From assembly GCA_040008015.1 (NCBI GenBank), contig JBDTTZ010000125.1, positions 1 to 41,822 of the forward strand: a DNA stretch of 41,822 bases. The letters run 5' to 3'. Below the pieces are notes generated by a model. The model saw only the letters and a program-made list of their open reading frames with translations, did no database searches and had not been told where the DNA came from. The position numbers were made by a program, and so were the translations under genes. The DNA is from Gemmatimonadota bacterium. GTDB taxonomy: Bacteria > Gemmatimonadota > Gemmatimonadetes > Gemmatimonadales > GWC2-71-9. Of the stretch, positions 12,637-27,047 are shown in pieces. The number at the start of each line of letters is the position of its first letter. Position 1 is the first letter of the stretch.

Positions 12637-13698
12637 GTGACCGACCTCCTGACTCGACGGCTCTACAACCAGCACATCGCCGGCTCTCCCCTGAAACAGC
12701 CGGAGGACGTCGTACGGTGGCTCGGGGCGGTACAGTCGCAGGACTACCTCGGGGCGAAATGGTCACTCGGACAGCGGCTGCGAAACGGTACCGACGCGAC
12801 AATAGACCAGGCGTTCAACGATGGCAGGATTCTCCGCATCCACATGCTGCGGCCGACCTGGCATTTTGTTTCACCGGAAGACATCCGCTGGATGCTGCAG
12901 CTGACCGCACCGCACGTCCATGCCCTCAACAAATACCCCTACCGCGTGAGCGGGCTGGATGCGCCCGTCCTGACCCGGACCAGCCGGCTCATCGAGCGAG
13001 CCCTCGAGGGCGGACACTCGAAGACGCGGAAGGAGCTGGCGGCGATCCTGGACAAGGACAAGGTCGGCGGAACTGGCCTGCGGATGGTGTGCATCATGAT
13101 GAACGCCGAGCTGGAGGGGGTGGTCTGCAGCGGGCCACTCAAAGGAAAGCAGCACACCTACGCGCTGCTGGAGGAACGGGTCCCGCCGGCTCGCGCCCGC
13201 ACGCGCGACGATGCGCTGGCTGAGCTGGCTCGCCGATTCTTCACCGGTCATGGACCGGCCACCGTCAGGCACTTCGCGTGGTGGTCGGGTTTGTCGATGA
13301 AAACGGCCAGGGCCGGACTGGAGATGGTGCAGCACCAGCTCTCCAGCGAAGCGATCAACAGCCATATCTTCTGGTCGGGCCCGGACTCCCGCCGGGTTCG
13401 CCCCGGCAGGGCCGCCTACCTGATTCCGGAATACGACGAATGCCTGACGGGATACCGCGATCTCGCGGTGCCGGATGCCGCGCGCGCCAGGGGACTCCGG
13501 CCCGCGGGGGACGGATCGGTACGCCCTATCATTTTTGGCGGAAAGCGAGTTGGAACCTGGCGACGAGTCATACTCAAGGGCAGCCTGACCGTCGAAGCCA
13601 ATCTGTTCGCGAAGCTGAGTGCCGCCGAATCCCGCGCTCTCGAGGCGACCGTTCGACGCTACAGAGAATTCCTCAACCTGCCGGCAACCCTGGCCTGA
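12637..13698 (+). CDS. Winged-helix DNA-binding domain protein of the AlkZ/YcaQ DNA glycosylase family
   Basis: 353 aa with a GTG start. The N-terminus LLTRRLYNQHIAG...DVVRWLGAVQSQDYLGAKWSL, plus RILRIHMLRPTWHFV and VPEYDECLTGY-like segments, are characteristic of the HTH_42 family. The candidate catalytic motif is Q-S-Q. Confidence 0.85.
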   Translation: MTDLLTRRLYNQHIAGSPLKQPEDVVRWLGAVQSQDYLGAKWSLGQRLRNGTDATIDQAFNDGRILRIHMLRPTWHFVSPEDIRWMLQLTAPHVHALNKYPYRVSGLDAPVLTRTSRLIERALEGGHSKTRKELAAILDKDKVGGTGLRMVCIMMNAELEGVVCSGPLKGKQHTYALLEERVPPARARTRDDALAELARRFFTGHGPATVRHFAWWSGLSMKTARAGLEMVQHQLSSEAINSHIFWSGPDSRRVRPGRAAYLIPEYDECLTGYRDLAVPDAARARGLRPAGDGSVRPIIFGGKRVGTWRRVILKGSLTVEANLFAKLSAAESRALEATVRRYREFLNLPATLA

Positions 13699-14667: not shown

Positions 14668-15523
14668 CACCCTCGTAACCATCGTCGGACTGCTGCTTGC
14701 CGCCGCGGGACCCGCCCGCGGCCAGATGGTGCCGATCGCTCCCCGGCTGCTCGACCCCCGCACTGAAATCCCCGCTGGAAGACTCGAAGAGCACGTGGTG
14801 TTCGACTCGTCCTATCATCGCGAGCGCCGGATCTGGATCTACACCCCGCCTCACTACGATCCCCGGGTCGCCACTCCGTATCCGCTGATCGTCGCGTTCG
14901 ACGGCAATGACTATCGCGACACCATGCCGCTTCCCATGGTGCTCGACACCCTGCTCGCGGCCGGTCGGGCTCCACCCTTTGTCGCCGTGCTCATCGACGA
15001 TTCCGCCTCCGGCGTTCGCATCGCCGACCTGGGCAATGCGGCGCGGATGACCACGTTCCTGGGACGGCAGCTGATGCCCTGGGTTCAGGGAGGGTGGCGG
15101 GTGACGACCGATCCGGGCCGGGTCATCATTACCGGCTCCAGCGCGGGCGGACTCGGCGCGGCGTACGCAGCGCTCACCCGTCCCGAGCTCTTTGGCAACG
15201 TGTGGTCGCAGAGCGGAGCCTTCTGGCGCGGAGCCGAGGGTTCCAACGGCCCGCCCTGGGAATGGCTGACAATTCAGGTGAAAGCGGCGCCGAAAAAGGA
15301 GATCCGGTTCCTGCTCGACGTGGGGGAAAACGAGGATCACCCGACCCTGAATGGCGCCGGGCCCAACTTTCTGGAGGCGAGCCGCCGTTTCCGAAATGCC
15401 CTGGTATCGAAGGGGTATGCCGTGACCTACACGGAAGTCCCGGGTGGCCAGCATGCTCCCCAATGGTGGAGGCTCCGGCTGCCCGAGGGGATCGTGATTA
15501 TTGCTTCGGGATGGGACAAATAA
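14651..15523 (+). CDS. Secreted esterase-family alpha/beta hydrolase (enterochelin-esterase/Fes-like)
   Basis: It has a signal peptide. RIWIYTPPHYDP..YPLIVAFDG, the nucleophile elbow GSSAGG, and the C-terminal YTEVPGGQH are typical of the 'putative esterase' family. Confidence 0.85.
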   Translation: MPKRADTLVTIVGLLLAAAGPARGQMVPIAPRLLDPRTEIPAGRLEEHVVFDSSYHRERRIWIYTPPHYDPRVATPYPLIVAFDGNDYRDTMPLPMVLDTLLAAGRAPPFVAVLIDDSASGVRIADLGNAARMTTFLGRQLMPWVQGGWRVTTDPGRVIITGSSAGGLGAAYAALTRPELFGNVWSQSGAFWRGAEGSNGPPWEWLTIQVKAAPKKEIRFLLDVGENEDHPTLNGAGPNFLEASRRFRNALVSKGYAVTYTEVPGGQHAPQWWRLRLPEGIVIIASGWDK

Positions 15524-15607
15524 GAAAAGGATTAATCTCCCCACACCCGTCACCGAAACCGACCCCCGCCCGCCCTGACTCCTACATACTTTAAGTCATT
15601 TATTAAC

Positions 15608-15624
15608 AATGGTATAGCACCATT
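15608..15624. promoter_or_regulatory. Palindrome AATGGT-atagc-ACCATT upstream of the carrier-protein operon (candidate operator)
   Basis: It has perfect 6-bp arms with a 5-nt spacer. It sits in the AT-richer 220-nt spacer about 120-135 nt upstream of the ATG at 15744 and abuts a TTGACT hexamer (15624-15629). I found no convincing -10 element. Confidence 0.25.
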
Positions 15625-15743
15625 TGACTCAGGGAGGATTTCACTCGGTCATTCAGGACTGCTTCTTGCTAACTCTTGCAGTCACGGGCGACTCCGGGAA
15701 TGCGTCGCGGCGCCCCATTACCTGAAAAACTCCGGAAAATCAC

Positions 15744-16922
15744 ATGTCCCACGCGCCCCACCAGGCGGCCACCAGCCCAGGCGAACTCCTGGCCCGCGCC
15801 CAGGCCATCGCAGCCAACATCGCCGCGAAGCAAGCACCCGAAGTCGACCGACACGCACGTTTCCCCCACGAAACCGTGGAGGCAGCGCGCGAGGCCGAGC
15901 TGTTGTCGGCGCTGGTGCCGGTGGAGCTCGGAGGGGCGGGCGCAAGCATGGGTGACCTTGCCGCCATGTGCGCGGCCCTGGCCCAGGGCTGCGGCTCGAG
16001 CGGCATGGTGCTCGCCATGCACCACATTCAGATCGCCTGCCTCGCGCGCCATGCCCGCTCGTCATCGTTCTTCGAAGCCTACCTCCGCGACGTAGCCGAA
16101 CGGCAGCTGCTCCTGGCCTCGATAACATCCGAGGTGGGAACCAGCGGCGACACCCGCTCCAGCATCTGCGCCATTGAGCGCGGCGACGGGCGATTCAGCC
16201 TGGTCAAGGACGCTACCACCGTTTCATACGGTGAGTACGCCGACGATCTGCTGGTGACCTGCCGGCGCGCCGCCGATTCTTCCCCGTCCGACCAGGTCCT
16301 GGTCCTCGTCCGCAAAGCCGACCTCTCGCTGGAGCGGACCGGCGAGTGGGACACCCTGGGGATGCGCGGCACCTGTAGCCCGGCCTACAAGCTGACGGCC
16401 TCCGGCCCCGAGTCGCAGATCGTTCCTGGCGCGTTCGCCGATTCGTCGGCGCAGTCGATGGTTCCCTATTCGCACATCCTGTGGAGCGCGGTCTGGCTGG
16501 GCATCGCCACCGACGCGATCGCCCGCGCATCGGCATATGTCCGGGCCGAGGCGCGCAAGAAGCCGGGCACGATCCCGGCGACGGCGACCCGGCTGGCCGA
16601 GGCCTCGGTGATGCTCCAGTCCATGCGGAACGACGTGACCGCCGCCGCCGCCGAGTTCGATGCCCTGGACGGCTGTCTCGAGCCGCTGTCGAGCATGAGC
16701 TGGGCGCTGCGGATGAACAATCTCAAGGTCGCCAGCTCGGAGGCGGCACCGCGGATCGTGCACCAGGCCCTCCAGATTCTCGGCATCATGGGATACAAGA
16801 ACGATTCGCCCCTCAGCGTCGGCCGGCAGTATCGCGACGTCCTCTCCGCGTCGCTCATGATCAGCAACGACCGGATCGCCTCGAAGAGCGCCTCCATGCT
16901 GCTCGTGCTCAAGGACGAGTAG
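15744..16922 (+). CDS. Acyl-CoA dehydrogenase-fold flavoprotein (non-canonical catalytic-base region)
   Basis: 392 aa with ACAD N-terminal, middle and C-terminal domain patterns (RFPHETVEAAREAELLSALVP.ELGG, TSEVGTSGD, GYKNDSPLSVGRQYRDV). Where MCAD-type enzymes have Y-E-G-T, this protein reads MISND. Confidence 0.9.
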   Translation: MSHAPHQAATSPGELLARAQAIAANIAAKQAPEVDRHARFPHETVEAAREAELLSALVPVELGGAGASMGDLAAMCAALAQGCGSSGMVLAMHHIQIACLARHARSSSFFEAYLRDVAERQLLLASITSEVGTSGDTRSSICAIERGDGRFSLVKDATTVSYGEYADDLLVTCRRAADSSPSDQVLVLVRKADLSLERTGEWDTLGMRGTCSPAYKLTASGPESQIVPGAFADSSAQSMVPYSHILWSAVWLGIATDAIARASAYVRAEARKKPGTIPATATRLAEASVMLQSMRNDVTAAAAEFDALDGCLEPLSSMSWALRMNNLKVASSEAAPRIVHQALQILGIMGYKNDSPLSVGRQYRDVLSASLMISNDRIASKSASMLLVLKDE

Positions 16923-17834
16923 ATGACCGCCCCCTCCGCCCCGCCGGTCTTCCACGATGAGCTGGTCGCCCACGGCCTGATTACGCCGGTGGGCGTGCTC
17001 GGCGCGTTCGGCCGCCGCCAGGTCTTCGAGGACGTGCTCGAGCGCCTCGACGCCCTGATTCTGCGGCTGGCAAAGGACGATGCGGTCGAGTCGATGACAT
17101 TTCCGCCGGTGATCGACCGGGCCATCATCGAGCGCACCGGGTACATGGATTCCTTTCCGAACCTGTGCGGCGTGGTGCACAGCTTCGTGGGACCCGAGCG
17201 CGATGCCCGGGCGATTTCCGAGCGGATCCAGAAGGCGGAGCCCTGGGGCGACATGCTGGCCATGACCGATGTCGTGCTGAACCCGGCCGCCTGCTACCCG
17301 CTGTATCCCACCTGCCGCGGCATCCTCCCCCCGGGCGGGCGCGAGGTCACCATGGCGGCCTGGGTCTACCGGCAGGAGCCGTCGGCGGAACCGACCCGGA
17401 TGCGATCCTTTCGGGTGCGGGAGTTCGTGCGGCTCGGCGCGGCGGAACACTGCGTTGCCTGGCGTGACCAGTGGCTGGAGCGCGGGCTCGCGATGCTCAC
17501 GTCGCTGGAGCTGCCGGCCCGGTCCGACGTCGCCGCCGATCCGTTCTTCGGCCGTGGCGGGAAGATCCTCGCCGCCGGCCAGATCGAGCAGCGGCTCAAA
17601 TTCGAGGTGCTGATCCCGGTCATCTCCGACGAGGCGCCGACGGCGTGCTGCTCGTTCAACTACCACCAGGACAAGTTCGGGAGTGCATTCGACATTCGAA
17701 CCGCCGACGGAGAGGTGGCGCATACCGCGTGTCTCGGTTTCGGCATGGAGCGGATCGTCATGGCGCTCTTCCGGACTCACGGCTTTGATCCGAAGCAGTG
17801 GCCCCGGGCAGTCCGCGAGAAGCTCTGGTCATGA
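16923..17834 (+). CDS. Amino acid--[carrier protein] ligase (truncated methanogen-type seryl-tRNA-synthetase homologue)
   Basis: At 303 aa it is a class-II aaRS catalytic core only. Motif 2 is MRSFRVREF and motif 3 is CLGFGMERIVMALF. Cys124, Glu167 and Cys270 sit in the contexts expected for the active-site Zn ligands. There is no tRNA-binding domain. It is adjacent to a carrier protein and a PPTase. Confidence 0.8.
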   Translation: MTAPSAPPVFHDELVAHGLITPVGVLGAFGRRQVFEDVLERLDALILRLAKDDAVESMTFPPVIDRAIIERTGYMDSFPNLCGVVHSFVGPERDARAISERIQKAEPWGDMLAMTDVVLNPAACYPLYPTCRGILPPGGREVTMAAWVYRQEPSAEPTRMRSFRVREFVRLGAAEHCVAWRDQWLERGLAMLTSLELPARSDVAADPFFGRGGKILAAGQIEQRLKFEVLIPVISDEAPTACCSFNYHQDKFGSAFDIRTADGEVAHTACLGFGMERIVMALFRTHGFDPKQWPRAVREKLWS

Positions 17835-18841
17835 ACCGGATCCAGGTGCTTCCCGGGTTCGAGGTCGCCGGCTACCGGCGGCATGAGCTGCACGCCGACG
17901 ACCGCGTCTGGGTGGAAAAGAACTGCTACGTCGATGTCTGCATCGAGCTGCTCCACGCGCTCGGCCTGGAGCCGCTCGCGCTGCTGGGCGCCTGCGCCGC
18001 GATCGACTTCGAGGGAGACAACTTCACGTTCTTCAAGCCCTCGCACGACGAGATGCGCCTCTTCTTCGGACTTGATGTGCAGGAGCTCAATGTCTGGCGC
18101 CCGCTCATCGAGCACGCGGCCGAGCACCTGGCCGCCGGCAAGCTCATCAGCACGGAAACGGACAGTTTCAATCTGCCGGACACCGAGGGAACCGATTACC
18201 AGCGGAACCACGTCAAGACCACGATCATTCTCGCCGACCTGGACGTCGAAGCCCGGCGGCTGGGGTATTTCCATAACGCCGGCTATTACACCCTCGACGG
18301 CCAGGACTTCGCCCGGCTCTTCCGCCTGGACCAGGCGCCTGATCCGGCCTTTCTCCCGCTGTTCGCCGAAGTCATCCGGGTAGACCGGCTGGTGCGGCGG
18401 ACTCCCGGTGCGCTGAAACGGCTGGCCCGCGAGCTCCTGGCCATCCACGTGGCACGCCGGCCGGCGAGCAATCCACTCGTCGCGTTTCAACACCGCTTCG
18501 AGCGGGATCTCCCGGAGATCCAGGGCCAGGGTCTCGGGTATTATCACGCGTGGGCCTTCGCCACGGTGCGCCAGGTCGGCGCCGCGTCCGAGCTGTTGTC
18601 GCTGCATCTCCGGTGGCTGGGCAGCCCGGAGGCCGGCGAGAGCCTGGCATCGGCGGCCGACGACTTCGAGCGCCTGAGTGCCGCCGCCAAGACGTTCATC
18701 CTGAAGGCGGCCCGCGCCGTCAACACCCGCCGGGCAGTGGATGCCTCGGCAATTTTCCTGGAGATGGCCCAGGCCTGGGAACGGGGAATGTCTCGGCTCG
18801 CCCTGGCGGTCGGATCAGAAATGTCGGAGCAGCCCGTATGA
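17831..18841 (+). CDS. DUF1839 family protein
   Basis: The start MNRIQVLPGF.. (ATG 17831) overlaps the upstream stop (ATGA). The sequence HELHADDRVWVEKNCYVDVCIELLHALGLEP..FEGDNFTFFKPS matches my recollection of DUF1839, a family usually found next to aa:CP ligases. Confidence 0.75.
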   Translation: MNRIQVLPGFEVAGYRRHELHADDRVWVEKNCYVDVCIELLHALGLEPLALLGACAAIDFEGDNFTFFKPSHDEMRLFFGLDVQELNVWRPLIEHAAEHLAAGKLISTETDSFNLPDTEGTDYQRNHVKTTIILADLDVEARRLGYFHNAGYYTLDGQDFARLFRLDQAPDPAFLPLFAEVIRVDRLVRRTPGALKRLARELLAIHVARRPASNPLVAFQHRFERDLPEIQGQGLGYYHAWAFATVRQVGAASELLSLHLRWLGSPEAGESLASAADDFERLSAAAKTFILKAARAVNTRRAVDASAIFLEMAQAWERGMSRLALAVGSEMSEQPV

Positions 18842-19242
18842 CCGCCGCCGCGCTCACAGTCGGGATCGACCTGGTCCAGGTGAGTCGGATCGCCGAGTCA
18901 TTGGACCGATTCGGAGACCGTTTTCTCAAGCGGATCTTCACCGAGGGAGAGATCGCCTACGCCCGGGCTGAGCCGGAGCAGACCGCCGAGCGGCTGGCCG
19001 CCCGCTTTGCCGCCAAAGAGGCGACGATCAAGGCCATGGGGCTGGCGGAGCAGCCGTTCAACTGGCGGGACATCGAGGTCCGGCGGACCAGCTCCGGAGC
19101 CTGTGAGATAGATCTCCACGGCTCCGTCGGGGCATTTGCATCATCCTCGGGCGCCGGCCCGCTTATCGTAAGCTTGAGCCACGAGGGTGACTACGCTACG
19201 GCAGTGGTCATCTCCTGTGGACCACGAATCCAGGACACATGA
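18838..19242 (+). CDS. acpS: Holo-[acyl-carrier-protein] synthase (AcpS-type 4'-phosphopantetheinyl transferase)
   Basis: 134 aa. GIDLVQVSRI, FAAKEATIKA and SLSHEGDYATAVV are canonical AcpS motifs. There is an ATGA overlap with both neighbours. Confidence 0.85.
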   Translation: MTAAALTVGIDLVQVSRIAESLDRFGDRFLKRIFTEGEIAYARAEPEQTAERLAARFAAKEATIKAMGLAEQPFNWRDIEVRRTSSGACEIDLHGSVGAFASSSGAGPLIVSLSHEGDYATAVVISCGPRIQDT

Positions 19243-19502
19243 GCCCGCAAGAGACGACCCGGATCACCGAGACGGTTCGCCGGATCCTCAAAGAACACGG
19301 CCGCTTTTCGCGTGACGTCGAGAGCCTGGCTGCCGATGCCGACCTGTACCAGGCCGGGATGACGTCGCACGCGAGCGTGAACATCATGCTGGCGCTGGAA
19401 GGGGAGTTTGACGTCGAGTTCCCCGACCACATGCTGACCCGGGCCGTGTTCTCCAGCATCAATTCGATGCGCACCGCGGTACAGGAGCTCCTCCCGCAAT
19501 GA
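19239..19502 (+). CDS. Dedicated acyl/aminoacyl carrier protein
   Basis: 87 aa. The ACP helix-II region is LYQAGMTSHASVNIMLALEGEF, with the phosphopantetheine-attachment Ser in GMTSH. Confidence 0.85.
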   Translation: MSPQETTRITETVRRILKEHGRFSRDVESLAADADLYQAGMTSHASVNIMLALEGEFDVEFPDHMLTRAVFSSINSMRTAVQELLPQ

Positions 19503-22039
19503 GTGGGGCCGGGCGTGGACGCGTCCGCTCCATCTCCGGCTACCAGGTCGAACGGCTGTCCGAGGGATGGGGGGTGGCGTCATGCCCTCCCGATGCGATT
19601 GACGGGCCGGCGGCGCTGGCGGCCGCCTCGCTCGAATGGCTTCCGGCACTGGTGCCTTCCACCGCCGCCTCGGCGCTGCGCGCCGCCGGTCGCTGGTCCC
19701 TCGAAGATCCTCCCCGAAAATTCGACGCCGAAGACTGGTGGTACCGGACCTCGTTCCGCGCCGATCCGGCAGAGCCGGGCGAACAGATCTGGCTCTGCTT
19801 CGACGGACTGGCGACGATATCCGACGTCTGGCTCAATGGAGAGCCCCTGCTCTGCTCGGCGGGAATGTTCACCGCGCGCGAGCACCGCGTGGACCAGCAG
19901 CTCCGAGCCGAGAACCATCTCGCGATCCGCTTTCGCTCTCTTGACTCGCTGCTTGCGGCCCGCCGGCCCCGGCCCCGCTGGCGGGCGCCGATGGTAGAGC
20001 ACCAGCAGCTGCGCTGGCACCGAACCACCCTCCTCGGCCGGACACCCGGGTGGTCACCGCCCGCGGCGGCGGTCGGACCCTGGCGCCCGGTGCGCCTGGA
20101 GCGCCGGCGGGGTGTCATCATCCAAGACGTGCGGCTGCTGGCGCATGGCAGCGGCGCACTGGATGTCTCCTGCCGGGTAGCGACCCTCAGCGGTGAAACG
20201 GTGTCCGGGGCGGAGATCATCGTCGAGCGCGATGGCCGCACGTATGGCACGGCTCTCAACCTGTCAGGCTCCGGCGAATTCAGCGCAACACTCCAGGTGC
20301 CCGACGCAGAGCTGTGGTGGCCCCATACCCACGGGGACCCGGCCCTCTACTCGGCACGCCTCCGCCTGGGACGCGCCCGGGAGATCATCGAGGTTGACCT
20401 GGGCGCCGTCGGCTTTCGCTCCGTCTCGCTCGAGACCGCCGGTGATGATTTCGAGATCCGGGTCAACAGTGTCCCGATCTTCTGCCGCGGTGCCTGCTGG
20501 ACACCGCTGGACCCGGTCTCGCTCGGAGAGTCTCCCGGGACACTGGACCAGGCCATGACCCAGGTGGTAGCCGCCGGCATGAACATGCTGCGGGTAGGCG
20601 GCACGATGGTCTACCAAAGCGACGATTTCCTCGATGCCTGCGATAGCCGCGGCATTCTCCTCTGGCAGGACTTCATGTTCGCGAATATGGACTACCCGGA
20701 GGATGACAAGTCGTTCATAGCCGCGGTAGACATCGAGATTCGGCAGGAGCTGGGCCGATTGCAGGGCCGTCCAAGCGTGGCCGTGCTGTGCGGAAACAGC
20801 GAAGGGGGTCAGCAGGCCGCGATGTGGGGAGCGACGCGGGATCGGTGGACGCCGGCCCTCTTTCACCGGCTCATTCCCGACCTCGTCGCGGCGTTCTGTT
20901 CCGGTGTTCCCTATGCCCCGTCATCGGCATTTGGCGGCGCGTTTCCGCACCAGGCTAGCACGGGAGCGACATCATACTACGGCGTGGGAGCGTATCGCAG
21001 ACCACTCGAGGACGCCCGCCGGGCCGAAGTGCGCTTCGCCTCCGAATGCCTCGCCTTCGCCAATGTCCCCACGGCGCAATCCCTGGCGGCGTCGCCGGTG
21101 CTTCGCGGCGCCCGGGTTCATCATTCCGCCTGGAAGGGCCGCACGCCGCGCGACCCGGGCGCCGGCTGGGACTTCGACGATGTGCGGGACCATTACCTCG
21201 CCCTGCTCTTCGGGGTGGACCCGCTCGAGCTCCGCGCCTCGGATCACGAGCGCTACCTCTCGTTGAGCCGAGTGGTAACCGGTGAGGTCATGGCGGCAGT
21301 CTTTGGCGAATGGAGGCGGCGGCGATCCACCACCCGCGGTGGCCTGGTCTGGTTCCTTCGCGATCTCTGGGACAGTGCAGGATGGGGAGTAATCGATGCT
21401 TCCGGGAAACCAAAAGCGGCATGGCACTATCTCCGGCGGGCGCTGGCGCCGGTCGCGCTCTTTCTTTCCGACGAAGGGGGCAACGGAATCGGCGTTCACC
21501 TGACGAACGACACTCCGCTGATGGTGGAAGGGGACCTCGAGATTGCGCTCTTTCGCGGGGCGGTCCCGGTCACCCGCGGGCACCAGGCTGTATCGGTCGC
21601 GCCCCACGACTCACTGGAGCGCAATGCCGCCGACTGGTTCGACAGCCTCCACGACCTGAGCTATGCCTACCGCTTTGGTCCCCCGGCCTATGACCTCATG
21701 GCGGCCACCGTGCGTGACGGGTCGGGCAGCGTGATTGCGCGGGCCTGTCACTTTATCCAGGGCCTGCCTCGCGTCATGGTGCCGGAGATCGGGCTGACGG
21801 CCGAGGCGCGACGAAAAGCCGATGGGTACGAGCTAGTGGTGCGCACCCGTGATTTCGCCCAGTCAGTGACCGTCGAGCTGGAGGGGTACACGAGCGAAGA
21901 CAACTTCTTCCACCTTGCCCCGGGCGAGGAGCGTGTCCTCGAGATCCGGCCCGATGGCTCGGGCGCTTCGGCGCGCGGAACCCTCAAACCGCTCAATTCG
22001 GAGATGGCCACACCGGTGTCGTTCCCAGGCAACCCGTGA
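19499..22039 (+). CDS. Glycoside hydrolase family 2 protein (beta-mannosidase-like), no signal peptide
   Basis: 846 aa. It has DWWYRTSF and LCFDGLATISDVWLNGEPL. The acid/base context is LCGNSEGG and the nucleophile context is VRFASECLAFANVP, so both catalytic Glu residues appear retained. The start overlaps the carrier-protein stop (ATGA). Confidence 0.85.
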   Translation: MSGAGRGRVRSISGYQVERLSEGWGVASCPPDAIDGPAALAAASLEWLPALVPSTAASALRAAGRWSLEDPPRKFDAEDWWYRTSFRADPAEPGEQIWLCFDGLATISDVWLNGEPLLCSAGMFTAREHRVDQQLRAENHLAIRFRSLDSLLAARRPRPRWRAPMVEHQQLRWHRTTLLGRTPGWSPPAAAVGPWRPVRLERRRGVIIQDVRLLAHGSGALDVSCRVATLSGETVSGAEIIVERDGRTYGTALNLSGSGEFSATLQVPDAELWWPHTHGDPALYSARLRLGRAREIIEVDLGAVGFRSVSLETAGDDFEIRVNSVPIFCRGACWTPLDPVSLGESPGTLDQAMTQVVAAGMNMLRVGGTMVYQSDDFLDACDSRGILLWQDFMFANMDYPEDDKSFIAAVDIEIRQELGRLQGRPSVAVLCGNSEGGQQAAMWGATRDRWTPALFHRLIPDLVAAFCSGVPYAPSSAFGGAFPHQASTGATSYYGVGAYRRPLEDARRAEVRFASECLAFANVPTAQSLAASPVLRGARVHHSAWKGRTPRDPGAGWDFDDVRDHYLALLFGVDPLELRASDHERYLSLSRVVTGEVMAAVFGEWRRRRSTTRGGLVWFLRDLWDSAGWGVIDASGKPKAAWHYLRRALAPVALFLSDEGGNGIGVHLTNDTPLMVEGDLEIALFRGAVPVTRGHQAVSVAPHDSLERNAADWFDSLHDLSYAYRFGPPAYDLMAATVRDGSGSVIARACHFIQGLPRVMVPEIGLTAEARRKADGYELVVRTRDFAQSVTVELEGYTSEDNFFHLAPGEERVLEIRPDGSGASARGTLKPLNSEMATPVSFPGNP

Positions 22040-22758
22040 CTTCATTAACCACGCGGGAGCAGACCATCACGCTGGCCGGGCTGCGCACCATCGTCGTGGC
22101 GGCCGCGGAACCGGAGCTGGTCGTCATCATGTTGCATGGCTATGCCATGACGCCGGAAGATCTCGCTCCCTTCGCCCATTCCATGAAGATTCCAGCGGTC
22201 TTCCTGGTCCCCGAAGGCCCGCTGGCGGCCTGGCCGGCCGGACGCGCGTGGTGGGAGATGGATCATGAGCGCCGGGCCCTGGCGCTGGAGCGAGGACCGC
22301 GCGATCTCCACGCCGAGCACCCTGCCGGCGCGCCCGCGGCACGGGCGGGACTCCTGGCGTTCCTGGCGGAGAGCGGGACGCGATGGAAGGGTTGCTCGCG
22401 CGCGATCGTGGGCTTTTCGCAGGGTGGGATGCTGGCTTGTGATACCCTGCTGAGGGAGCGGCCTGACATCGCGCGGCTGGCGCTGTTGTCCTCGTCCCGC
22501 ATCGCGGCCGATGAATGGCTGCCGCTGGTGCCCCGGATGCGAGGGCTCCCGGTCCTGGTCAGCCATGGCCGCGCGGATGACGATCTCGCCTTCGGCGCCG
22601 GCTGTGCGCTGCGTGACCTGCTTCAATCCGGTGGGGCAGAGATGACATGGGTGCCCCACGATCACGGGCACGAGATTCCGCTGGTGGTGTGGCGGGCGCT
22701 GAGAAAATTCCTGTCTAGCGGAAAGGCAGAATCCGCACGGCACCGATCGCCGCGCTGA
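22036..22758 (+). CDS. Alpha/beta hydrolase of the phospholipase/carboxylesterase (acyl-protein thioesterase-like) family
   Basis: 240 aa with a GTG start overlapping the GH2 stop (GTGA). The triad contexts are VIMLHGY, the nucleophile elbow GFSQGG, SHGRADDDL and HDHGHEIP. Confidence 0.8.
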   Translation: MTSLTTREQTITLAGLRTIVVAAAEPELVVIMLHGYAMTPEDLAPFAHSMKIPAVFLVPEGPLAAWPAGRAWWEMDHERRALALERGPRDLHAEHPAGAPAARAGLLAFLAESGTRWKGCSRAIVGFSQGGMLACDTLLRERPDIARLALLSSSRIAADEWLPLVPRMRGLPVLVSHGRADDDLAFGAGCALRDLLQSGGAEMTWVPHDHGHEIPLVVWRALRKFLSSGKAESARHRSPR

Positions 22759-23764
22759 GCGGAGCCAGCACCCGCCTGGTGAGCCGCCAGCCATCGCGGG
22801 ACACCCGGCGCATCGCGTGCAGGCTGGTAAGAAGAGTGAAGAATCTTCGCCGGAGGGTCCGCCGCTTCGGCGCGACCCGGACCGGCTGGCCGGCCGCGGC
22901 ATAGATATGGGTTCCCTCGTCGATCATTGTCTTGCCGGTATCAACCACGCTTTGCAGGGTCGCCAGCTGCAGCTCGGTGTTCCCCACCCGTTCCCGCGCC
23001 ACGTCGCCCTGTGCGATCATCCGGTCGTAGAGTACCCCGAAATTGCGCCGCCGCATCGCTTCAGCCGCAAAGGGAAACACCGTGATAGTCTTTCGCTGGC
23101 CGCTGCGATCGATGATCTCGGTGGCCATGGGCTCAGAGGTGTACACCGGGACCGGCGCGGTGTCCTGGAAGCGGTGCTCGAGACAGTGGGTGAACGTCAG
23201 CACTTCCAGGCCGACGTCGAAGAACAACGCCTTGGCGCCAAGGGACAGCATTTTCTCGTAAGGAGAACCAGGTCCGCACGAATGAGCCAGGTCCTCGTGA
23301 CCGGAGATGACCCACTCGGCCCGGGGACCCCAGGCCAGCAGCGGATGCAGCGGGTTGGCGCTCCGGATCACGCCGGCCCGGCGGCGAAAGGACTCCGACA
23401 TCACGCCCATCATCGACGGCGTACGCCGGACGTCGAAAACGCTTTTCGATTCCAGGTAGGCCTGGGCCGAGCTCCGGTAGGGCATCGACACCATGAAGAG
23501 GTGACCCCGGGGGCCGATGATGCTGAGAATGCGGTCGATGACGTGCGGGGCGTCTCCGCTGAATCCATTCATCGAGCTGAACGACGCCTGCATGAGGATC
23601 GAATCGCCCTCGCCAATTCCCAGGCGCCGCAACGCCGCGTCCAGGTCGGCCGGCGAGTAGGCCAGCGTCGCCCGAATCACCCGGTAACGCAGGAGTCGGA
23701 TCGCCTCCTTGAGGCGGGCTCGGAGCGAGGCCGGTAGCCACGCGAACAGCGCGCGCGTGGTCAC
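22715..23764 (-). CDS. AAC(3)-family (aminoglycoside N3-acetyltransferase-like) acetyltransferase with a C-terminal extension
   Basis: 349 aa. LRRLGIGEGDSILMQASFSSMNGFSGDAPHVIDRILSIIGPRGHLFMVSMPY and ...SCGPGSPYEKM.. follow the Antibiotic_NAT family pattern. Its 3' end overlaps the convergent hydrolase gene by 44 nt. Confidence 0.8.
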   Translation of the reverse strand: MTTRALFAWLPASLRARLKEAIRLLRYRVIRATLAYSPADLDAALRRLGIGEGDSILMQASFSSMNGFSGDAPHVIDRILSIIGPRGHLFMVSMPYRSSAQAYLESKSVFDVRRTPSMMGVMSESFRRRAGVIRSANPLHPLLAWGPRAEWVISGHEDLAHSCGPGSPYEKMLSLGAKALFFDVGLEVLTFTHCLEHRFQDTAPVPVYTSEPMATEIIDRSGQRKTITVFPFAAEAMRRRNFGVLYDRMIAQGDVARERVGNTELQLATLQSVVDTGKTMIDEGTHIYAAAGQPVRVAPKRRTLRRRFFTLLTSLHAMRRVSRDGWRLTRRVLAPLSAAIGAVRILPFR

Positions 23765-23933
23765 GAGCGCACCGGGAGCGTTGGACCGTCCAGGGTGAAA
23801 TTGGGCATGGTTGCACTGAGACTGTGCAGAACCCGAGCCACCGGCTTGGCGACCTAACCCAATGCCTTGGTGTGACTTGACTGCATACCAATCTGAGGCG
23901 TAGCGGCCGCGCTACATCCTCGACGCCACTGCG

Positions 23934-24818
23934 CTACTGCCGCTGATAGAGCACCGTTTCTATGGTAACCTGCCCGCCGCGAGGCAGCGGAACCGTAATT
24001 TCCTCCGCTTGCTCCCCGCTTCCGAACAGCATGAAGAGTTGCCCGTTCGAGACGGTGTACCGCCCCGAATTCACCGGGTCCTCCTGCGCTGCAAGATCGA
24101 AATTGAAATGCTGCAAGTCGGGCGCATTGTCATAGCATCGATATACGTGACCGTCAGCAGAAAAGAGGTAGTAGTGCAGCGCGAGTCGGTGGTCCCCGTA
24201 GCCGGCCGGGCGGTTCAGGTTCACCACGTACTTGGGCTTGGTCCCCATGTAGAGGCCGGCAATCTGCCGGCCCAGCGGCCCGGGCCCGTTGGCCACCGAA
24301 GGTGGAGCCGCGGCCGATTCCACCCTCAAGCTCCGATACATAGCCTGGAGTGTTGGCCCTGACCGCATCCAGCTCTCCGGCGTTGCCGCCTGGGCGTCCA
24401 TGATGGCCGCATATCCCCGCGCGACCAGGATCGTCCGCACGTGCTGGTGCATCACCCCGGCGACATTCTCGATAAACTGCACGCTGTGGACGGCTTCCGC
24501 GCCCGGAATGCTGTCCCGGCTGAAGATCGGCTGAGCCGCGACATTGCTCTCCTGGAACTGGGGATCGATCCATCGTTTCAGGAGATCCTCCTGCAACAGC
24601 TGCTGGATGTCGCCGTTGATTGGCCGAAACCAATAGACCTGTACCCCGGCATTGGCCTCGTTGGAGGAATACGACTCCGGGTTGGGGACGACGCTGCGAT
24701 ACCAGCTGGCCGGCGGCTGGTACCGGAGCAGGGGAATCGTCTGCTGGGCAACGACCTGGTATGGCATCAGCGCAACGAGCGCAACCAGACCGGCGATCAT
24801 CCGTAGTATCAGCCGCAT
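23934..24818 (-). CDS. Hypothetical secreted protein
   Basis: 294 aa with the signal peptide MRLILRMIAGLVALVALMPYQVVAQQ. No family recognised. Confidence 0.65.
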   Translation of the reverse strand: MRLILRMIAGLVALVALMPYQVVAQQTIPLLRYQPPASWYRSVVPNPESYSSNEANAGVQVYWFRPINGDIQQLLQEDLLKRWIDPQFQESNVAAQPIFSRDSIPGAEAVHSVQFIENVAGVMHQHVRTILVARGYAAIMDAQAATPESWMRSGPTLQAMYRSLRVESAAAPPSVANGPGPLGRQIAGLYMGTKPKYVVNLNRPAGYGDHRLALHYYLFSADGHVYRCYDNAPDLQHFNFDLAAQEDPVNSGRYTVSNGQLFMLFGSGEQAEEITVPLPRGGQVTIETVLYQRQ

Positions 24819-24931
24819 AGCGACTCCGTGAGGTGTGACTGGAAACCTTCTCCCCGAGAGCCTAGGCTTAGGGCGTCACTCACCTGTCCGATAGCGTCAA
24901 TTCGCAGGTGACACCCATAGCCCGGGTCAGA

Positions 24932-25654
24932 ATGAATCCGCCCCAGCCGTTAGAGACCCAACATGTCCCGGTCGCCATCGTAACCGCCGCCAGCCGAGGC
25001 ATGGGCGCCGCTTGTGCCCGGGAGCTGGGTGCCCGGGGCTACCGGCTTGCTCTCCTCGCCCGCTCCGACGACGTGGATGCACTGGCGATGGAACTGGGGG
25101 CCGTGGCGATCAGAGGCAGTGTGACCGAGCCGGCGGACCTGGACCGGATCGTGGATACCGCGCTCCAACATTACGGCCGGATTGACGTCGTGGTCAATAA
25201 CACCGGCCACGCCGCCAAGGGCCGGCTCCTCGACATCACCGACGCCGACTGGCACGCCGGTCTCGACATGTTGTTGCTGAACGTGATCCGCATGGCCCGC
25301 CTGGTCACTCCTGCCATGCTCCAGCAGAAGACCGGTTCTCTGGTCAACATATCCAGTTTTGCCGCGGAGGAGCCGGGACTCAAGCATCCGGTCTCCGCCG
25401 TGCTCCGGATCGGGTTGGAGAATTTCGCCCGGCTCTATAGCCAGCAGTATGCCGGGCACGGCCTCCGCATGAATAACGTGCTGCCCGGCTGGATCGATAC
25501 CTATCCCGTCACCGACGACGTGCTGGCCGCGATTCCGGCGGGACGGCCCGGCAGCGCCGAAGAAGTGGCGAGGGTGGTCGCCTTTCTCGCCTCGCCTGAC
25601 GCGAGTTACATCACCGGTCAGAGCCTGTTGGTCGATGGCGGGTTGGTGCGGTGA
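24932..25654 (+). CDS. SDR-family oxidoreductase lacking the canonical YxxxK motif
   Basis: The Rossmann motif is VTAASRGMGAA. NNTG, NISS and the PG motif are present. No Y-x3-K occurs between NISS and PGW. The start is uncertain: ATG 24932 or GTG 24908. Confidence 0.85.
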   Translation: MNPPQPLETQHVPVAIVTAASRGMGAACARELGARGYRLALLARSDDVDALAMELGAVAIRGSVTEPADLDRIVDTALQHYGRIDVVVNNTGHAAKGRLLDITDADWHAGLDMLLLNVIRMARLVTPAMLQQKTGSLVNISSFAAEEPGLKHPVSAVLRIGLENFARLYSQQYAGHGLRMNNVLPGWIDTYPVTDDVLAAIPAGRPGSAEEVARVVAFLASPDASYITGQSLLVDGGLVR

Positions 25655-25685
25655 GAATGGTGACCGAGTGCTTCCTGGAGAACCC

Positions 25686-27047
25686 ATGAAAGACCTGCTG
25701 ACGGCTACCGCCGAGCGCGCGAATCGTTACCTGGAGGACCTCCAGACTCGCAGCGTCGCGCCATCGAGGGAAGCGATTGCCCGCCTCGCCACTCTGAGCG
25801 CTCCGCTGCAACCAGAGCCCCGTGCTCCCGAAACCGTACTCCAGGAGCTGGACGAGATCGGCTCTCCCGCGACCACCGGCATTGCGGGTCCCCGCTATTT
25901 CGGCTTCGTCATCGGTGGATCCTTGCCGGTCGCGCTGGCCGCCAACTGGATGGCGTCTGCCTGGGACCAGAACTGCGGGCTGTACAACATCACGCCCGGC
26001 GCGGCATTCCTCGAAAAGGTGGCACTCGATTGGCTGCTCGACATACTCGGCCTGCCCCGGGGATGCGCCGGCGGGTTCGTCACCGGCACCACGGTCGCCC
26101 ACCTGACGGCGCTCGCCGCGGCGCGGCATGCCGTTCTCGCCCGGGTCGGCTGGAACGTCGAGGCCGATGGGTTATTCGGTGCTCCACCCATCACGGTCGT
26201 CGTCGGCGCCGAAGCCCATGCCACGCTGTTCAAGTCACTCGGCGTGCTGGGCCTCGGACGTAGCCGAGTGGTCAAAGTCCCGGTGGACGGACAGGGGAGA
26301 ATGCGGCTGGACGCGCTCCCTCCGCTCACCGGACCAACCATTGTCTGCACCCAGGCGGGGAACGTGAACACCGGCGCGTGCGATCCCACCCGTGAAATCG
26401 TCGAGTGGGCGCATGCCGCCGCCGCCTGGGTCCACGTCGACGGCGCCTTCGGGCTCTGGGCCCGGGTGGCGCCTTCTCGCGCATACCTGGTCGAGGGCAT
26501 CGAAACGGCCGATTCCTGGGCCACCGATGGCCACAAATGGTTGAACGTTCCCTATGACAGCGGGATCGCGTTCGTGCGGGACCAGGACGCGCTTCGAGCC
26601 GCCATGGCCATCACCGCCGAGTACCTGCCAACCGAGAGTGAAAATCGGAACCCGTCAGATTTTGTCCCCGAGCTGTCTCGGCGTGCCCGCGGTGTGGATA
26701 TCTGGGCGGCCCTCCGCTCGCTGGGCCGCTCCGGCGTGACCGAGCTGGTCGAGCGAAACTGCCGCCAGGCGCGGAGGTTCGCCGAAGGACTCAGCACCGC
26801 CGGCTACCAGGTGCTGAACGACGTGGTGCTGAACCAGGTGCTGGTCGCCTTTGGTGACGCAGTGACGACCAATCGCGTCATCTCGGAGATTCAGCTGGAG
26901 GGAACCTGCTGGTGCGGCGGGACCGTGTGGCAAGGCCGGACCGCCATGCGAATCAGCGTGTCCAGTTGGGCAACCACCGACGCCGATGTCGAGCAGAGCA
27001 TCGCGGCGATGATACGGGTCGCTACCGCCGTGGGCAGAGGGGAATAG
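25686..27047 (+). CDS. Group II pyridoxal-dependent (amino acid) decarboxylase family protein
   Basis: The start MKDLL is preceded by ggagaa. The PLP-lysine context is ATDGHKWLNVPYDSG. GFVTGTTVAHLTALAAAR and HVDGAFG are typical of the family. Confidence 0.85.
   Translation: MKDLLTATAERANRYLEDLQTRSVAPSREAIARLATLSAPLQPEPRAPETVLQELDEIGSPATTGIAGPRYFGFVIGGSLPVALAANWMASAWDQNCGLYNITPGAAFLEKVALDWLLDILGLPRGCAGGFVTGTTVAHLTALAAARHAVLARVGWNVEADGLFGAPPITVVVGAEAHATLFKSLGVLGLGRSRVVKVPVDGQGRMRLDALPPLTGPTIVCTQAGNVNTGACDPTREIVEWAHAAAAWVHVDGAFGLWARVAPSRAYLVEGIETADSWATDGHKWLNVPYDSGIAFVRDQDALRAAMAITAEYLPTESENRNPSDFVPELSRRARGVDIWAALRSLGRSGVTELVERNCRQARRFAEGLSTAGYQVLNDVVLNQVLVAFGDAVTTNRVISEIQLEGTCWCGGTVWQGRTAMRISVSSWATTDADVEQSIAAMIRVATAVGRGE

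Follow-up and report, generated by a model that had tools for sequence, protein, structure and literature searches.

An amino acid:[carrier protein] ligase cassette of a Gemmatimonadota bacterium and the glycosidase and serine hydrolase inherited with it

Background

Amino acid:[carrier protein] ligases (aa:CP ligases) are tRNA-independent enzymes, discovered in 2010, that resemble seryl-tRNA synthetase (SerRS). According to PMC9437257, carrier-protein aminoacylation has been shown in vitro for Bll0957 and Atu2573, and the amino acid that Bll0957 loads on its carrier protein is glycine or alanine (literature cited there). Here we analyze a cassette of this type on a contig of 41,822 nucleotides from a Gemmatimonadota bacterium (the whole contig is called the window below). 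In it the ligase gene is linked to genes for a glycosidase of glycoside hydrolase family 2 (GH2) and a serine hydrolase of the Abhydrolase_2 family, and both are found to be inherited with the cassette across phyla. The cassette is followed by a convergent gene for an acetyltransferase resembling aminoglycoside 3-N-acetyltransferases (AAC(3)).

The closest described neighbourhoods are those of Bradyrhizobium (Bll0957/Bsr0959) and Agrobacterium (Atu2571-Atu2574), which comprise a carrier protein, the SerRS-like ligase, a protein resembling acyl-CoA dehydrogenases (ACAD), a protein of the DUF1839 family and a GH2 protein. The same neighbourhood was described in a note in proof in 2010 (Biol Direct 5:48, PMC2922099), which predicted that an amino acid is ligated to an amino sugar of the cell surface. 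The supplement of Ozhelvaci and Steczkiewicz (JBC 299:104801, 2023, PMC10318531) places proteobacterial DUF1839 consistently beside genes for GH2, aa:CP ligase, ACAD and acyl carrier protein (ACP). The link between GH2 and the cassette has therefore been published twice (2010, 2023), and its interpretation has been largely anticipated in print.

Related features are found in other systems. In the biosynthesis of lincosamides, which employs an adenylation enzyme (CcbC/LmbC), a carrier protein (CcbZ/LmbN) and a condensation enzyme (CcbD/LmbD), a Cys-dependent, protease-like enzyme with a helical C-terminal domain transfers the carrier-bound amino acid to a sugar's amino group; CcbD uses its Cys to move it onto the amine of the amino sugar of lincosamides (PMC12945683). 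CtaG, a ligase dependent on a peptidyl carrier protein, belongs to a fold class that also includes BtrH and AsbE (PMC12865890, 2026). In the butirosin pathway (BtrI, BtrJ, BtrK, BtrO, BtrH, BtrG) a group derived from an amino acid is assembled and modified while bound to a small carrier protein and then passed by a papain-like transferase to the amine of an aminoglycoside. Finally, the module associated with exosortase A (XrtA/PEP-CTERM) comprises an acyl-CoA ligase, an ACP, hydrolases 1 and 2 and a pyridoxal phosphate (PLP)-dependent decarboxylase. Against this background, what is new in the present analysis are the changes in the GH2 pocket next to a retained pair of catalytic glutamates in a protein devoid of a signal peptide, the hydrolase as a frequent accessory, the confinement of the AAC(3)-like gene, and the fold match of DUF1839.

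Sequences and methods

The window is a complete contig (41.8 kb) of a metagenome-assembled genome (MAG) of 3.4 Mb in 544 contigs, 82% complete; the nearest relatives of its cassette are in MAGs of Gemmatimonadota and Gemmatimonadaceae. The genome comparison covered 41 relatives of the window genome, including that genome itself (G000), with GH2 orthologues accepted at E ≤ 1e-200. An alignment of DUF1839 retrieved 582 relatives from a collection of species-representative genomes, of which the best 80 were analyzed with 10-kb flanks. Of these, 42 extend 8 kb or more to each side (full-flank loci) and are the basis of all counts out of 42. Represented among the loci are Gemmatimonadota, Myxococcota, Gammaproteobacteria including Burkholderiales, Acidimicrobiales, Acidobacteriota and a Brevibacillus. 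Families were assigned with Pfam and NCBIfam profiles and their cut-offs, sequence matches in the PDB, AlphaFold (AF2) models and Foldseek.

Results and discussion

The cassette in the window

The operon consists of the following genes (coordinates in the window, strand, product):

15744..16922, +, ACAD-fold flavoenzyme, the operon's first gene (Pfam Acyl-CoA_dh_N and Acyl-CoA_dh_1; 42/42 full-flank loci)
16923..17834, +, aa:CP ligase, SerRS-like, tRNA-independent (NF005479, 407.6 bits against a cut-off of 357; 42/42 loci)
17831..18841, +, DUF1839, papain-like, probably a transferase of acyl groups from the carrier protein (Pfam PF08893, 320 bits)
18838..19242, +, AcpS-type phosphopantetheinyl transferase (Pfam ACPS, 69 bits; TIGR00556, 94.6 bits; 27/42 loci)
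19239..19502, +, dedicated carrier protein, ACP (NF005480, 105.2 bits against a cut-off of 72; 42/42 loci)
19499..22039, +, GH2 glycosidase of β-mannosidase architecture, 846 aa (Glyco_hydro_2_N2 80.2, Ig_mannosidase 33.6 and Glyco_hydro_2 25.7 bits, all above cut-offs)
22036..22758, +, Abhydrolase_2 serine hydrolase, 240 aa, of the carboxylesterase or acyl-protein-thioesterase type (PF02230, 36.3 bits against a cut-off of 23)

The ligase and the ACP exceed the cut-offs of their equivalog families, the genes for the ACAD-like protein, DUF1839 and the glycosidase are linked to them as in the cassettes of Bll0957/Atu2573 type, and the ligase matches Bll0957 in the PDB with an E-value of 5e-81. 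The GH2 gene starts with ATG at 19499 and shares the sequence ATGA with the end of the ACP gene, whose stop TGA occupies 19500-19502, and the GTG start of the hydrolase overlaps the GH2 stop (GTGA). The upstream junctions are just as tightly coupled, with TAG followed directly by ATG at 16920-16925 and ATGA at 17831 and 18838, so that the DUF1839 gene has an ATGA overlap at each end; 15744-22758 is therefore a single unit of seven genes. A first reading of the window from its letters alone (the sequence-only reading) had reported the GH2, hydrolase and AAC(3)-like genes, the overlap of the GH2 start with the ACP stop, the GTGA junction, the 44-nt overlap at 22715-22758 discussed further on and the active-site motifs, and all of these have been confirmed.

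The window copy shares with the Bradyrhizobium and Agrobacterium neighbourhoods the carrier protein, the SerRS-like ligase, the ACAD-like protein, DUF1839 and GH2, as well as the predicted logic of bringing an amino acid to a cell-surface sugar amine. It differs from them in residing in a Gemmatimonadaceae-like MAG, in having its own AcpS, a small Abhydrolase_2 protein and a convergent AAC(3)-like gene, and in lacking both the 600-aa double hydrolase described below and nearby polysaccharide genes. The window locus is thus an ordinary member of a known cassette, with a reduced set of hydrolases and a lineage-limited acetyltransferase as a neighbour.

Inheritance of the glycosidase and the hydrolase with the cassette

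In the full-flank loci, all of which have the ACAD, ligase and ACP genes (AcpS in 27), the GH2 gene is present in 41 of 42, the small hydrolase in 22, the 600-aa double hydrolase in 26, one or the other hydrolase in 35, and the AAC(3)-like gene in 2. Of 64 loci, 48 have the GH2 gene directly behind ACP and 13 directly behind DUF1839; an AcpS-ACP-GH2 block runs divergently to an ACAD-ligase-DUF1839 block in 19 loci. Among the 41 relatives, the GH2 orthologue and DUF1839 are present in an identical set of five genomes (G000, G003, G008, G011 and G022), in all of which they share one cassette, that of G008 being split across two contig ends. Their distribution is patchy even within the genus and is therefore not a simple vertical background. 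A reverse search starting from GH2 yielded two homologues on long contigs, both again in a cassette. One of the two (L109:6445-10761) is a fusion of 1438 aa, in which the cassette GH2 is joined to the double hydrolase. Pairwise distances of GH2 correlate with those of DUF1839, ACAD and ligase (r 0.65-0.78) as well as the core genes correlate among themselves. In L109 the DUF1839 gene was split into two gene calls (271 and 79 aa), a frameshift being the probable cause.

It could be argued that the GH2, hydrolase and AAC(3)-like genes came to lie beside the carrier-protein genes by chance. In favour of this, several neighbours in the window are not linked to the cassette: a short-chain dehydrogenase/reductase (SDR) is found in 3/42 loci, and a PLP decarboxylase, an esterase and an AlkZ-like protein are found in none. 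The AAC(3)-like gene, too, is rare. For GH2, accidental placement is excluded by its presence in 41/42 loci, its occurrence in the same five genomes and the fusion protein, and for the hydrolase it is very unlikely, given the 22/42 loci from several phyla and the frequent start/stop coupling to GH2. Chance juxtaposition of all three is hardly credible. Conserved synteny, a common phyletic pattern and the GH2::hydrolase fusion make it nearly certain that the carrier-protein pathway includes GH2 and the hydrolase, as the sequence-only reading had proposed; all three genes do recur in other ligase cassettes, with the frequencies given above. The same reading had called the glycosidase an unexpected member of such a pathway and had suggested a survey of the co-occurrence of GH2 and AAC(3) genes with ligase/DUF1839 cassettes. 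GH2 turned out to be a core member, already in the literature of 2010 and 2023, and the co-occurrence holds for GH2 and is not general for the AAC(3)-like gene.

A GH2 enzyme with a remodelled pocket

The GH2 protein matches β-mannosidases in the PDB with E-values from 2e-60 to 4e-45, the best being 5n6u (2e-60) and BtMan2A following with 2e-53. Its AlphaFold model (37 orthologues; pLDDT 89.6, pTM 0.93) was aligned by Foldseek to BtMan2A over about 880 columns and all five domains (TM 0.82, 24% identity). The family signature of domains, the five-domain fold with a central (β/α)8 barrel and the acid/base and nucleophile glutamates are all present. The last two lie in the motifs CGNSEGG (431-437) and FASECLAF (513-520), where E435 and E516 fall on the BtMan2A acid/base and nucleophile residues (chain positions 439 and 532 in 2je8, which we take to be E462 and E555 in the published numbering). 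E435 is conserved in 61/63 and E516 in 63/63 cassette orthologues, so that the enzyme is probably catalytically competent. A second structure-sequence search revealed no catalytic-residue mutants among the PDB entries.

There is no room for a signal peptide, because 846 aa is the maximal open reading frame (ORF), and a hydrophobic N-terminal stretch was found in none of 63 orthologues, with a median of 19 aa to the first invariant residue, W24. Lacking such a segment, the protein is cytoplasmic, and the earlier statements that it has no signal peptide and keeps both catalytic Glu contexts hold up.

The residues around the catalytic pair are different. We take the -1 subsite of BtMan2A to be formed by W198-D199-W200, W395, C424, N461 and W533. 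Of these, W198-D199-W200 is replaced by P183-G184-W185 (conserved among the orthologues), W395 by G367 (a variable position with G, S, A or P), C424 by N396, N461, which precedes the acid/base Glu, by S434 (62/63), and W533 by Y494, and these substitutions hold clade-wide. GH2 paralogues of the relatives (L007-L013) were tried as a control for the pocket residues and rejected, as they are of other GH2 types, with sequences too far diverged for an alignment across the active site. A loop rich in Arg and Trp (R158, W161, Q169, R172, W173 and R175; residues 152-185, window 19952-20053) is invariant in the cassette GH2 clade; it precedes the PGW segment, has low model confidence and has no equivalent in the aligned β-mannosidases.

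Compared with GH2 β-mannosidases of known structure (BtMan2A 2je8, DtMan 5n6u, XacMan2A 6byc and mouse MANBA 6ddt), the cassette enzyme thus has the same five-domain architecture (TM 0.78-0.82) and both glutamates at aligned positions, but it is only 20-24% identical to them, is cytoplasmic, and has the clade-wide substitutions in the pocket and the extra loop. The label "β-mannosidase-like" therefore suits the fold and the catalytic pair and not the sugar-binding residues. The predicted architecture is that of a β-mannosidase, and we do not file the enzyme as one, because the -1 subsite residues differ and their roles in BtMan2A are assumed here.

Two types of hydrolase

The small hydrolase satisfies the family profile and carries the motif GFSQGG at 126-131 and a triad of S128, D181 and H212, conserved to at least 95% in 24 orthologues. 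Its nearest structures are the Pseudomonas carboxylesterases 3cn7 (2e-12) and 1auo (4e-7). The 4-nt coupling to GH2 seen in the window recurs in L110 and L109. With 22/42 loci, the small hydrolase is a frequent accessory of the cassette.

Most cassettes have, after GH2 and either together with the small hydrolase or in its place, a protein of about 600 aa composed of two α/β-hydrolase halves (L023:13863-15650, L045:2442-4286 and 41 other loci). Its halves resemble the exosortase-A-associated hydrolases 2 and 1, with scores below cut-off for both (TIGR03101, 91 bits; TIGR03100, 122 bits), and neither has a detectable relation to the small hydrolase (BLASTP E > 0.2). In five loci an Acyl_transf_3 gene lies between the two hydrolases. 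The cassette and the exosortase A module thus have in common a carrier protein, a loading ligase and α/β hydrolases in exopolysaccharide loci; the module lacks GH2, DUF1839 and a ligase resembling aminoacyl-tRNA synthetases (aaRS), whereas the window copy lacks the double hydrolase.

DUF1839 and the likely acceptor

The AF2 model of DUF1839 (pLDDT 90) exhibits a papain-like N-terminal domain, in which the invariant Cys43 opens a helix (43-54), and a C-terminal helical bundle (203-342). Significant matches among known structures are confined to AziU2/U3, CtaG and CcbD (Foldseek hits 8gs1, 9qvp, 7yn2 and 9dks, probability 1.0, TM 0.53-0.57). A Pfam search even at E = 10 returned PF08893 only and no BtrH_N (PF14399), and a DUF1839 profile had no significant match among PDB sequences. 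As judged from the model, the link to CcbD/CtaG exists at the fold level only.

The likeness to the lincosamide system lies in the match of this model to the CcbD structures. It is limited by an identity of 12-14% and a TM of about 0.55; moreover, the loading enzyme of the cassette is a class II aaRS homologue and not an adenylation domain, the cassette has no thiooctose, ergothioneine or mycothiol genes, and the lincosamide clusters have no GH2 partner. The analogy with butirosin drawn in the sequence-only reading survives in so far as the model matches the CcbD/CtaG class that includes BtrH; it does not extend to the sequence, where BtrH_N finds no match, nor to the gene content, as the cassette has no ATP-grasp BtrJ, no deprotection enzyme of the BtrG type and no core pathway for an aminoglycoside.

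Other clues come from the neighbours. Genes for building glycans accompany the cassette in 26/42 loci: glycosyltransferases of the GT4 family, the XrtA/PEP-CTERM priming glycosyltransferase (572 bits), UDP-glucose/GDP-mannose dehydrogenase, Acyl_transf_3, AsnB-like proteins or AMP-ligases. The cassette has been found in hundreds of genomes of at least six phyla, usually beside surface-glycan genes. By its PDB matches, the ACAD-fold enzyme stands about as far from true ACADs as from amino-sugar nitrososynthases/DszC. A GNAT gene (Acetyltransf_3) lies between DUF1839 and AcpS in L024:10717-11652 and L040:10818-11645, where it was confirmed, and the same ORF family occurs in three further loci; another GNAT precedes ACP in L110, so that acetyltransferases of unrelated folds recur in the cassette.

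A proposed pathway

Based on these data, the following route can be proposed. AcpS would convert the carrier protein to holo-ACP, which the ligase would load with a small amino acid, Gly or Ala being expected by homology to Bll0957. The ACAD-fold flavoenzyme may then modify the tethered aminoacyl group. DUF1839, with its papain-like fold of the CcbD/CtaG/BtrH type, would take the acyl group onto its Cys and pass it to an amine, most likely on the sugar of a glycoside or glycan precursor. GH2, with its remodelled -1 pocket, might produce the acceptor or trim the aminoacylated glycoside inside the cell, and the serine hydrolase, to judge from its context, might remove an ester or thioester, for instance in clearing mis-loaded carrier protein or in deprotection.

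We give a probability of roughly 0.55 to the combined explanation, i.e. an aa:CP ligase cassette with inherited GH2 and hydrolase that aminoacylates a sugar amine; the value merges the near certainty that the two enzymes belong to the pathway with the acylation of a sugar amine, for which we consider the odds to be even. The suggestion of a glycoside or amino-sugar substrate, made in the sequence-only reading, is in this respect the best-supported idea of the acceptor, although aminoacylation of amino sugars had already been published in 2010. The ligase is inherited together with a serine hydrolase and with a cytoplasmic GH2 that has its catalytic residues apparently intact and its sugar pocket altered, and the partner DUF1839 is modelled with a fold like that of the amino-sugar-acylating CcbD.

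Several observations weigh against the proposed pathway. The GH2, DUF1839 and hydrolase proteins have no known product, substrate or activity in any cassette, and it is odd to find a hydrolysing glycosidase beside a biosynthetic loading system that consumes ATP. The functional roles of the BtMan2A subsite residues are, as said, presumed. Two related cassettes of Acidimicrobiales have AcpS, ACP, ACAD, ligase and DUF1839, flanked by GT4 and a priming glycosyltransferase, and no GH2 in the flanks examined (about 10 kb on both sides of L090 and about 4.9 kb upstream of L094). No genes for polysaccharides or glycan building were found in the flanks within the window. The double hydrolase was found neither in the window nor in the rest of the 82%-complete genome, and as it is present in 26/42 loci, the window copy of the cassette may be reduced. 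Finally, the loci analyzed are the closest 80 of 582, and the Rhizobiales and Burkholderia copies are not directly among them.

An alternative is a catabolic cassette, in which GH2 would cleave a glycoside or glycosylated amino acid taken up by the cell, and the amino-acid part would be bound to the carrier protein in activated form and oxidised by the flavoenzyme. In its favour, the glycosidase is cytoplasmic and competent for hydrolysis, the ACAD fold is typical of degradative pathways, and biosynthetic glycan genes are missing from the window flanks. However, no transporter or sugar-kinase family recurred among the ORF families common to the loci, the frequent neighbours (26/42) build glycans, and hallmarks of biosynthesis are present in the dedicated carrier protein, the phosphopantetheinyl transferase and the transferase of the CcbD/CtaG fold. 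We therefore consider catabolism unlikely and retain sugar-amine aminoacylation as the working explanation.

A bolder version of the aminoacylation pathway may be tentatively put forward. The cassette could be a general tRNA-independent route for placing a small amino acid, possibly oxidised and N-acetylated, on an amino sugar that is part of a surface glycan or of a small glycoside, with GH2 representing a new specificity class of its family that recognizes the aminoacylated sugar or an intermediate presented by the carrier protein. This idea stems from the invariant Arg/Trp-rich loop, the constant adjacency of ACP and GH2 and the replaced Asn of the NE motif, and we regard it as rather doubtful.

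The AAC(3)-like acetyltransferase and the convergent overlap

Downstream of the operon the window has the following features:

22715..23764, -, AAC(3)-like (Antibiotic_NAT) acetyltransferase, 349 aa, with a basic C-terminal tail (PF02522, 141.8 bits over residues 57-280)
22715..22758,., 44-nt convergent overlap of the 3' ends of the hydrolase and acetyltransferase genes (both stop codons read directly)
23934..24818, -, secreted protein, 294 aa, upstream of the acetyltransferase on the same strand (signal-peptide-like N-terminus; no Pfam or NCBIfam match)

The acetyltransferase has the Antibiotic_NAT fold family in common with AAC(3) enzymes and FrbF, and its T-x-x-H-x-x-E segment is conserved. 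It differs from AAC(3) enzymes in scoring far below the cut-offs of their models (78 bits against 270 for NCBIfam AAC_3, NF033082, and 36-50 bits against 420-675 for the subfamily models) and in being closest in the PDB to FrbF (3e-14), an enzyme of a phosphonate pathway and not of aminoglycosides. It further differs in its 70-aa basic tail, conserved in the aligned close homologues P0002, P0003, P0006, P0007 and P0008, and in the loci of its relatives. A sister clade without the tail (53-58% identical) lies in a polysaccharide locus with Wzx, Wzc, FemAB-like and ATP-grasp genes. Distant members (40-44% identical) lie in two loci with ACP, AMP-ligase, AsnB, KAS III, SDR and FabA-like genes, one of which also has glycosyltransferase and Wzx-type flippase genes. 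Because the homologues' neighbours are polysaccharide, ACP and ligase genes, the context of this family is surface-glycan and carrier-protein chemistry and not aminoglycosides, and no context of aminoglycoside production or resistance was found among these neighbours.

The step from AAC(3) to an aminoglycoside-type sugar, taken in the sequence-only reading, is thus weak, and with it the literal butirosin-like possibility that the locus makes an aminoglycoside-type antibiotic, with the acetyltransferase serving self-resistance or tailoring. Membership in Antibiotic_NAT and the assignment of DUF1839 to the fold class of BtrH speak for it; yet the window has no aminocyclitol genes, no aminotransferase/dehydrogenase genes for sugar tailoring and no glycosyltransferases, the AAC(3) cut-offs are missed widely, the relatives of the acetyltransferase belong to exopolysaccharide loci, and the wide distribution of the cassette beside surface-glycan genes fits poorly, all of which makes such an antibiotic very improbable. 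What the window itself adds is accordingly mainly negative: its GH2 is expected, and its AAC(3)-like gene gives no sign of aminoglycoside chemistry or resistance.

The AAC(3)-like gene, found in 2/42 full-flank loci, is equally rare among the relatives (2/41, namely G000 itself and G003), and the other genomes with the cassette, G008, G011 and G022, gave no match to it at E ≤ 1e-10; a general partnership with the pathway, as first envisaged, is not borne out. Orthologues with the tail are confined to one sublineage of Gemmatimonadaceae, and we conclude that the enzyme is a sublineage-specific addition outside the conserved pathway. Within that sublineage, it may still N-acetylate the newly installed amine. 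A functional tie of this kind, in which the enzyme acetylates the amino group (of the amino acid or sugar) that the pathway has installed, as MshD does after MshC in mycothiol synthesis, is an option that we hold to be somewhat less probable than its opposite. All tailed homologues (at least 57% identical) with enough context, five including the window, are convergent to the cassette hydrolase (the others being G003, L020, L021 and L113), the gene is the only Antibiotic_NAT gene found in the window genome, its motif is conserved, and unrelated GNAT acetyltransferases recur in other cassettes (the five-locus family and L110). On the other hand, five cases from one sublineage may share their synteny by mere inheritance, the gene is on the opposite strand in a unit with the secreted protein, and the tail-less sister clade occurs in a separate Wzx/Wzc locus; its rarity counts against the tie as well.

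As to the overlap, the acetyltransferase frame runs from 23764 to 22715 and ends in a stop read as CTA on the + strand at 22715-22717, while the hydrolase ends with TGA at 22756-22758. The overlap falls within the non-conserved C-terminal tails of both proteins and measures 68 nt in L113 and 4 nt in L020, with none in G003. A regulatory meaning was considered and rejected because of the variable tails and size, and antisense interference, which the sequence-only reading had proposed to check, finds no support.

In L020 (14894-17092, minus strand) the AAC(3)-like frame extends over 732 aa into a toroid domain resembling squalene-hopene cyclases, and a separate gene of that type accompanies the distant homologues in L107 and L108.

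Neighbouring genes and other features

A scan of the window with Rfam at gathering thresholds gave zero matches, and scanning 15400-25000 for promoters and terminators gave none beyond what shuffled sequence yields, nor any terminator separating the convergent genes. At 12637-13698, 2 kb upstream of the operon, there is a gene for an AlkZ-like DNA glycosylase (Pfam, 203 bits), and an SDR gene and a group II PLP decarboxylase gene lie downstream at 24908-27047; together with an esterase gene they were considered as pathway members and rejected on their frequencies in the related loci, already given. The secreted protein encoded next to the acetyltransferase (23934-24818, minus strand) has a 65% identical copy in the same position in L113.

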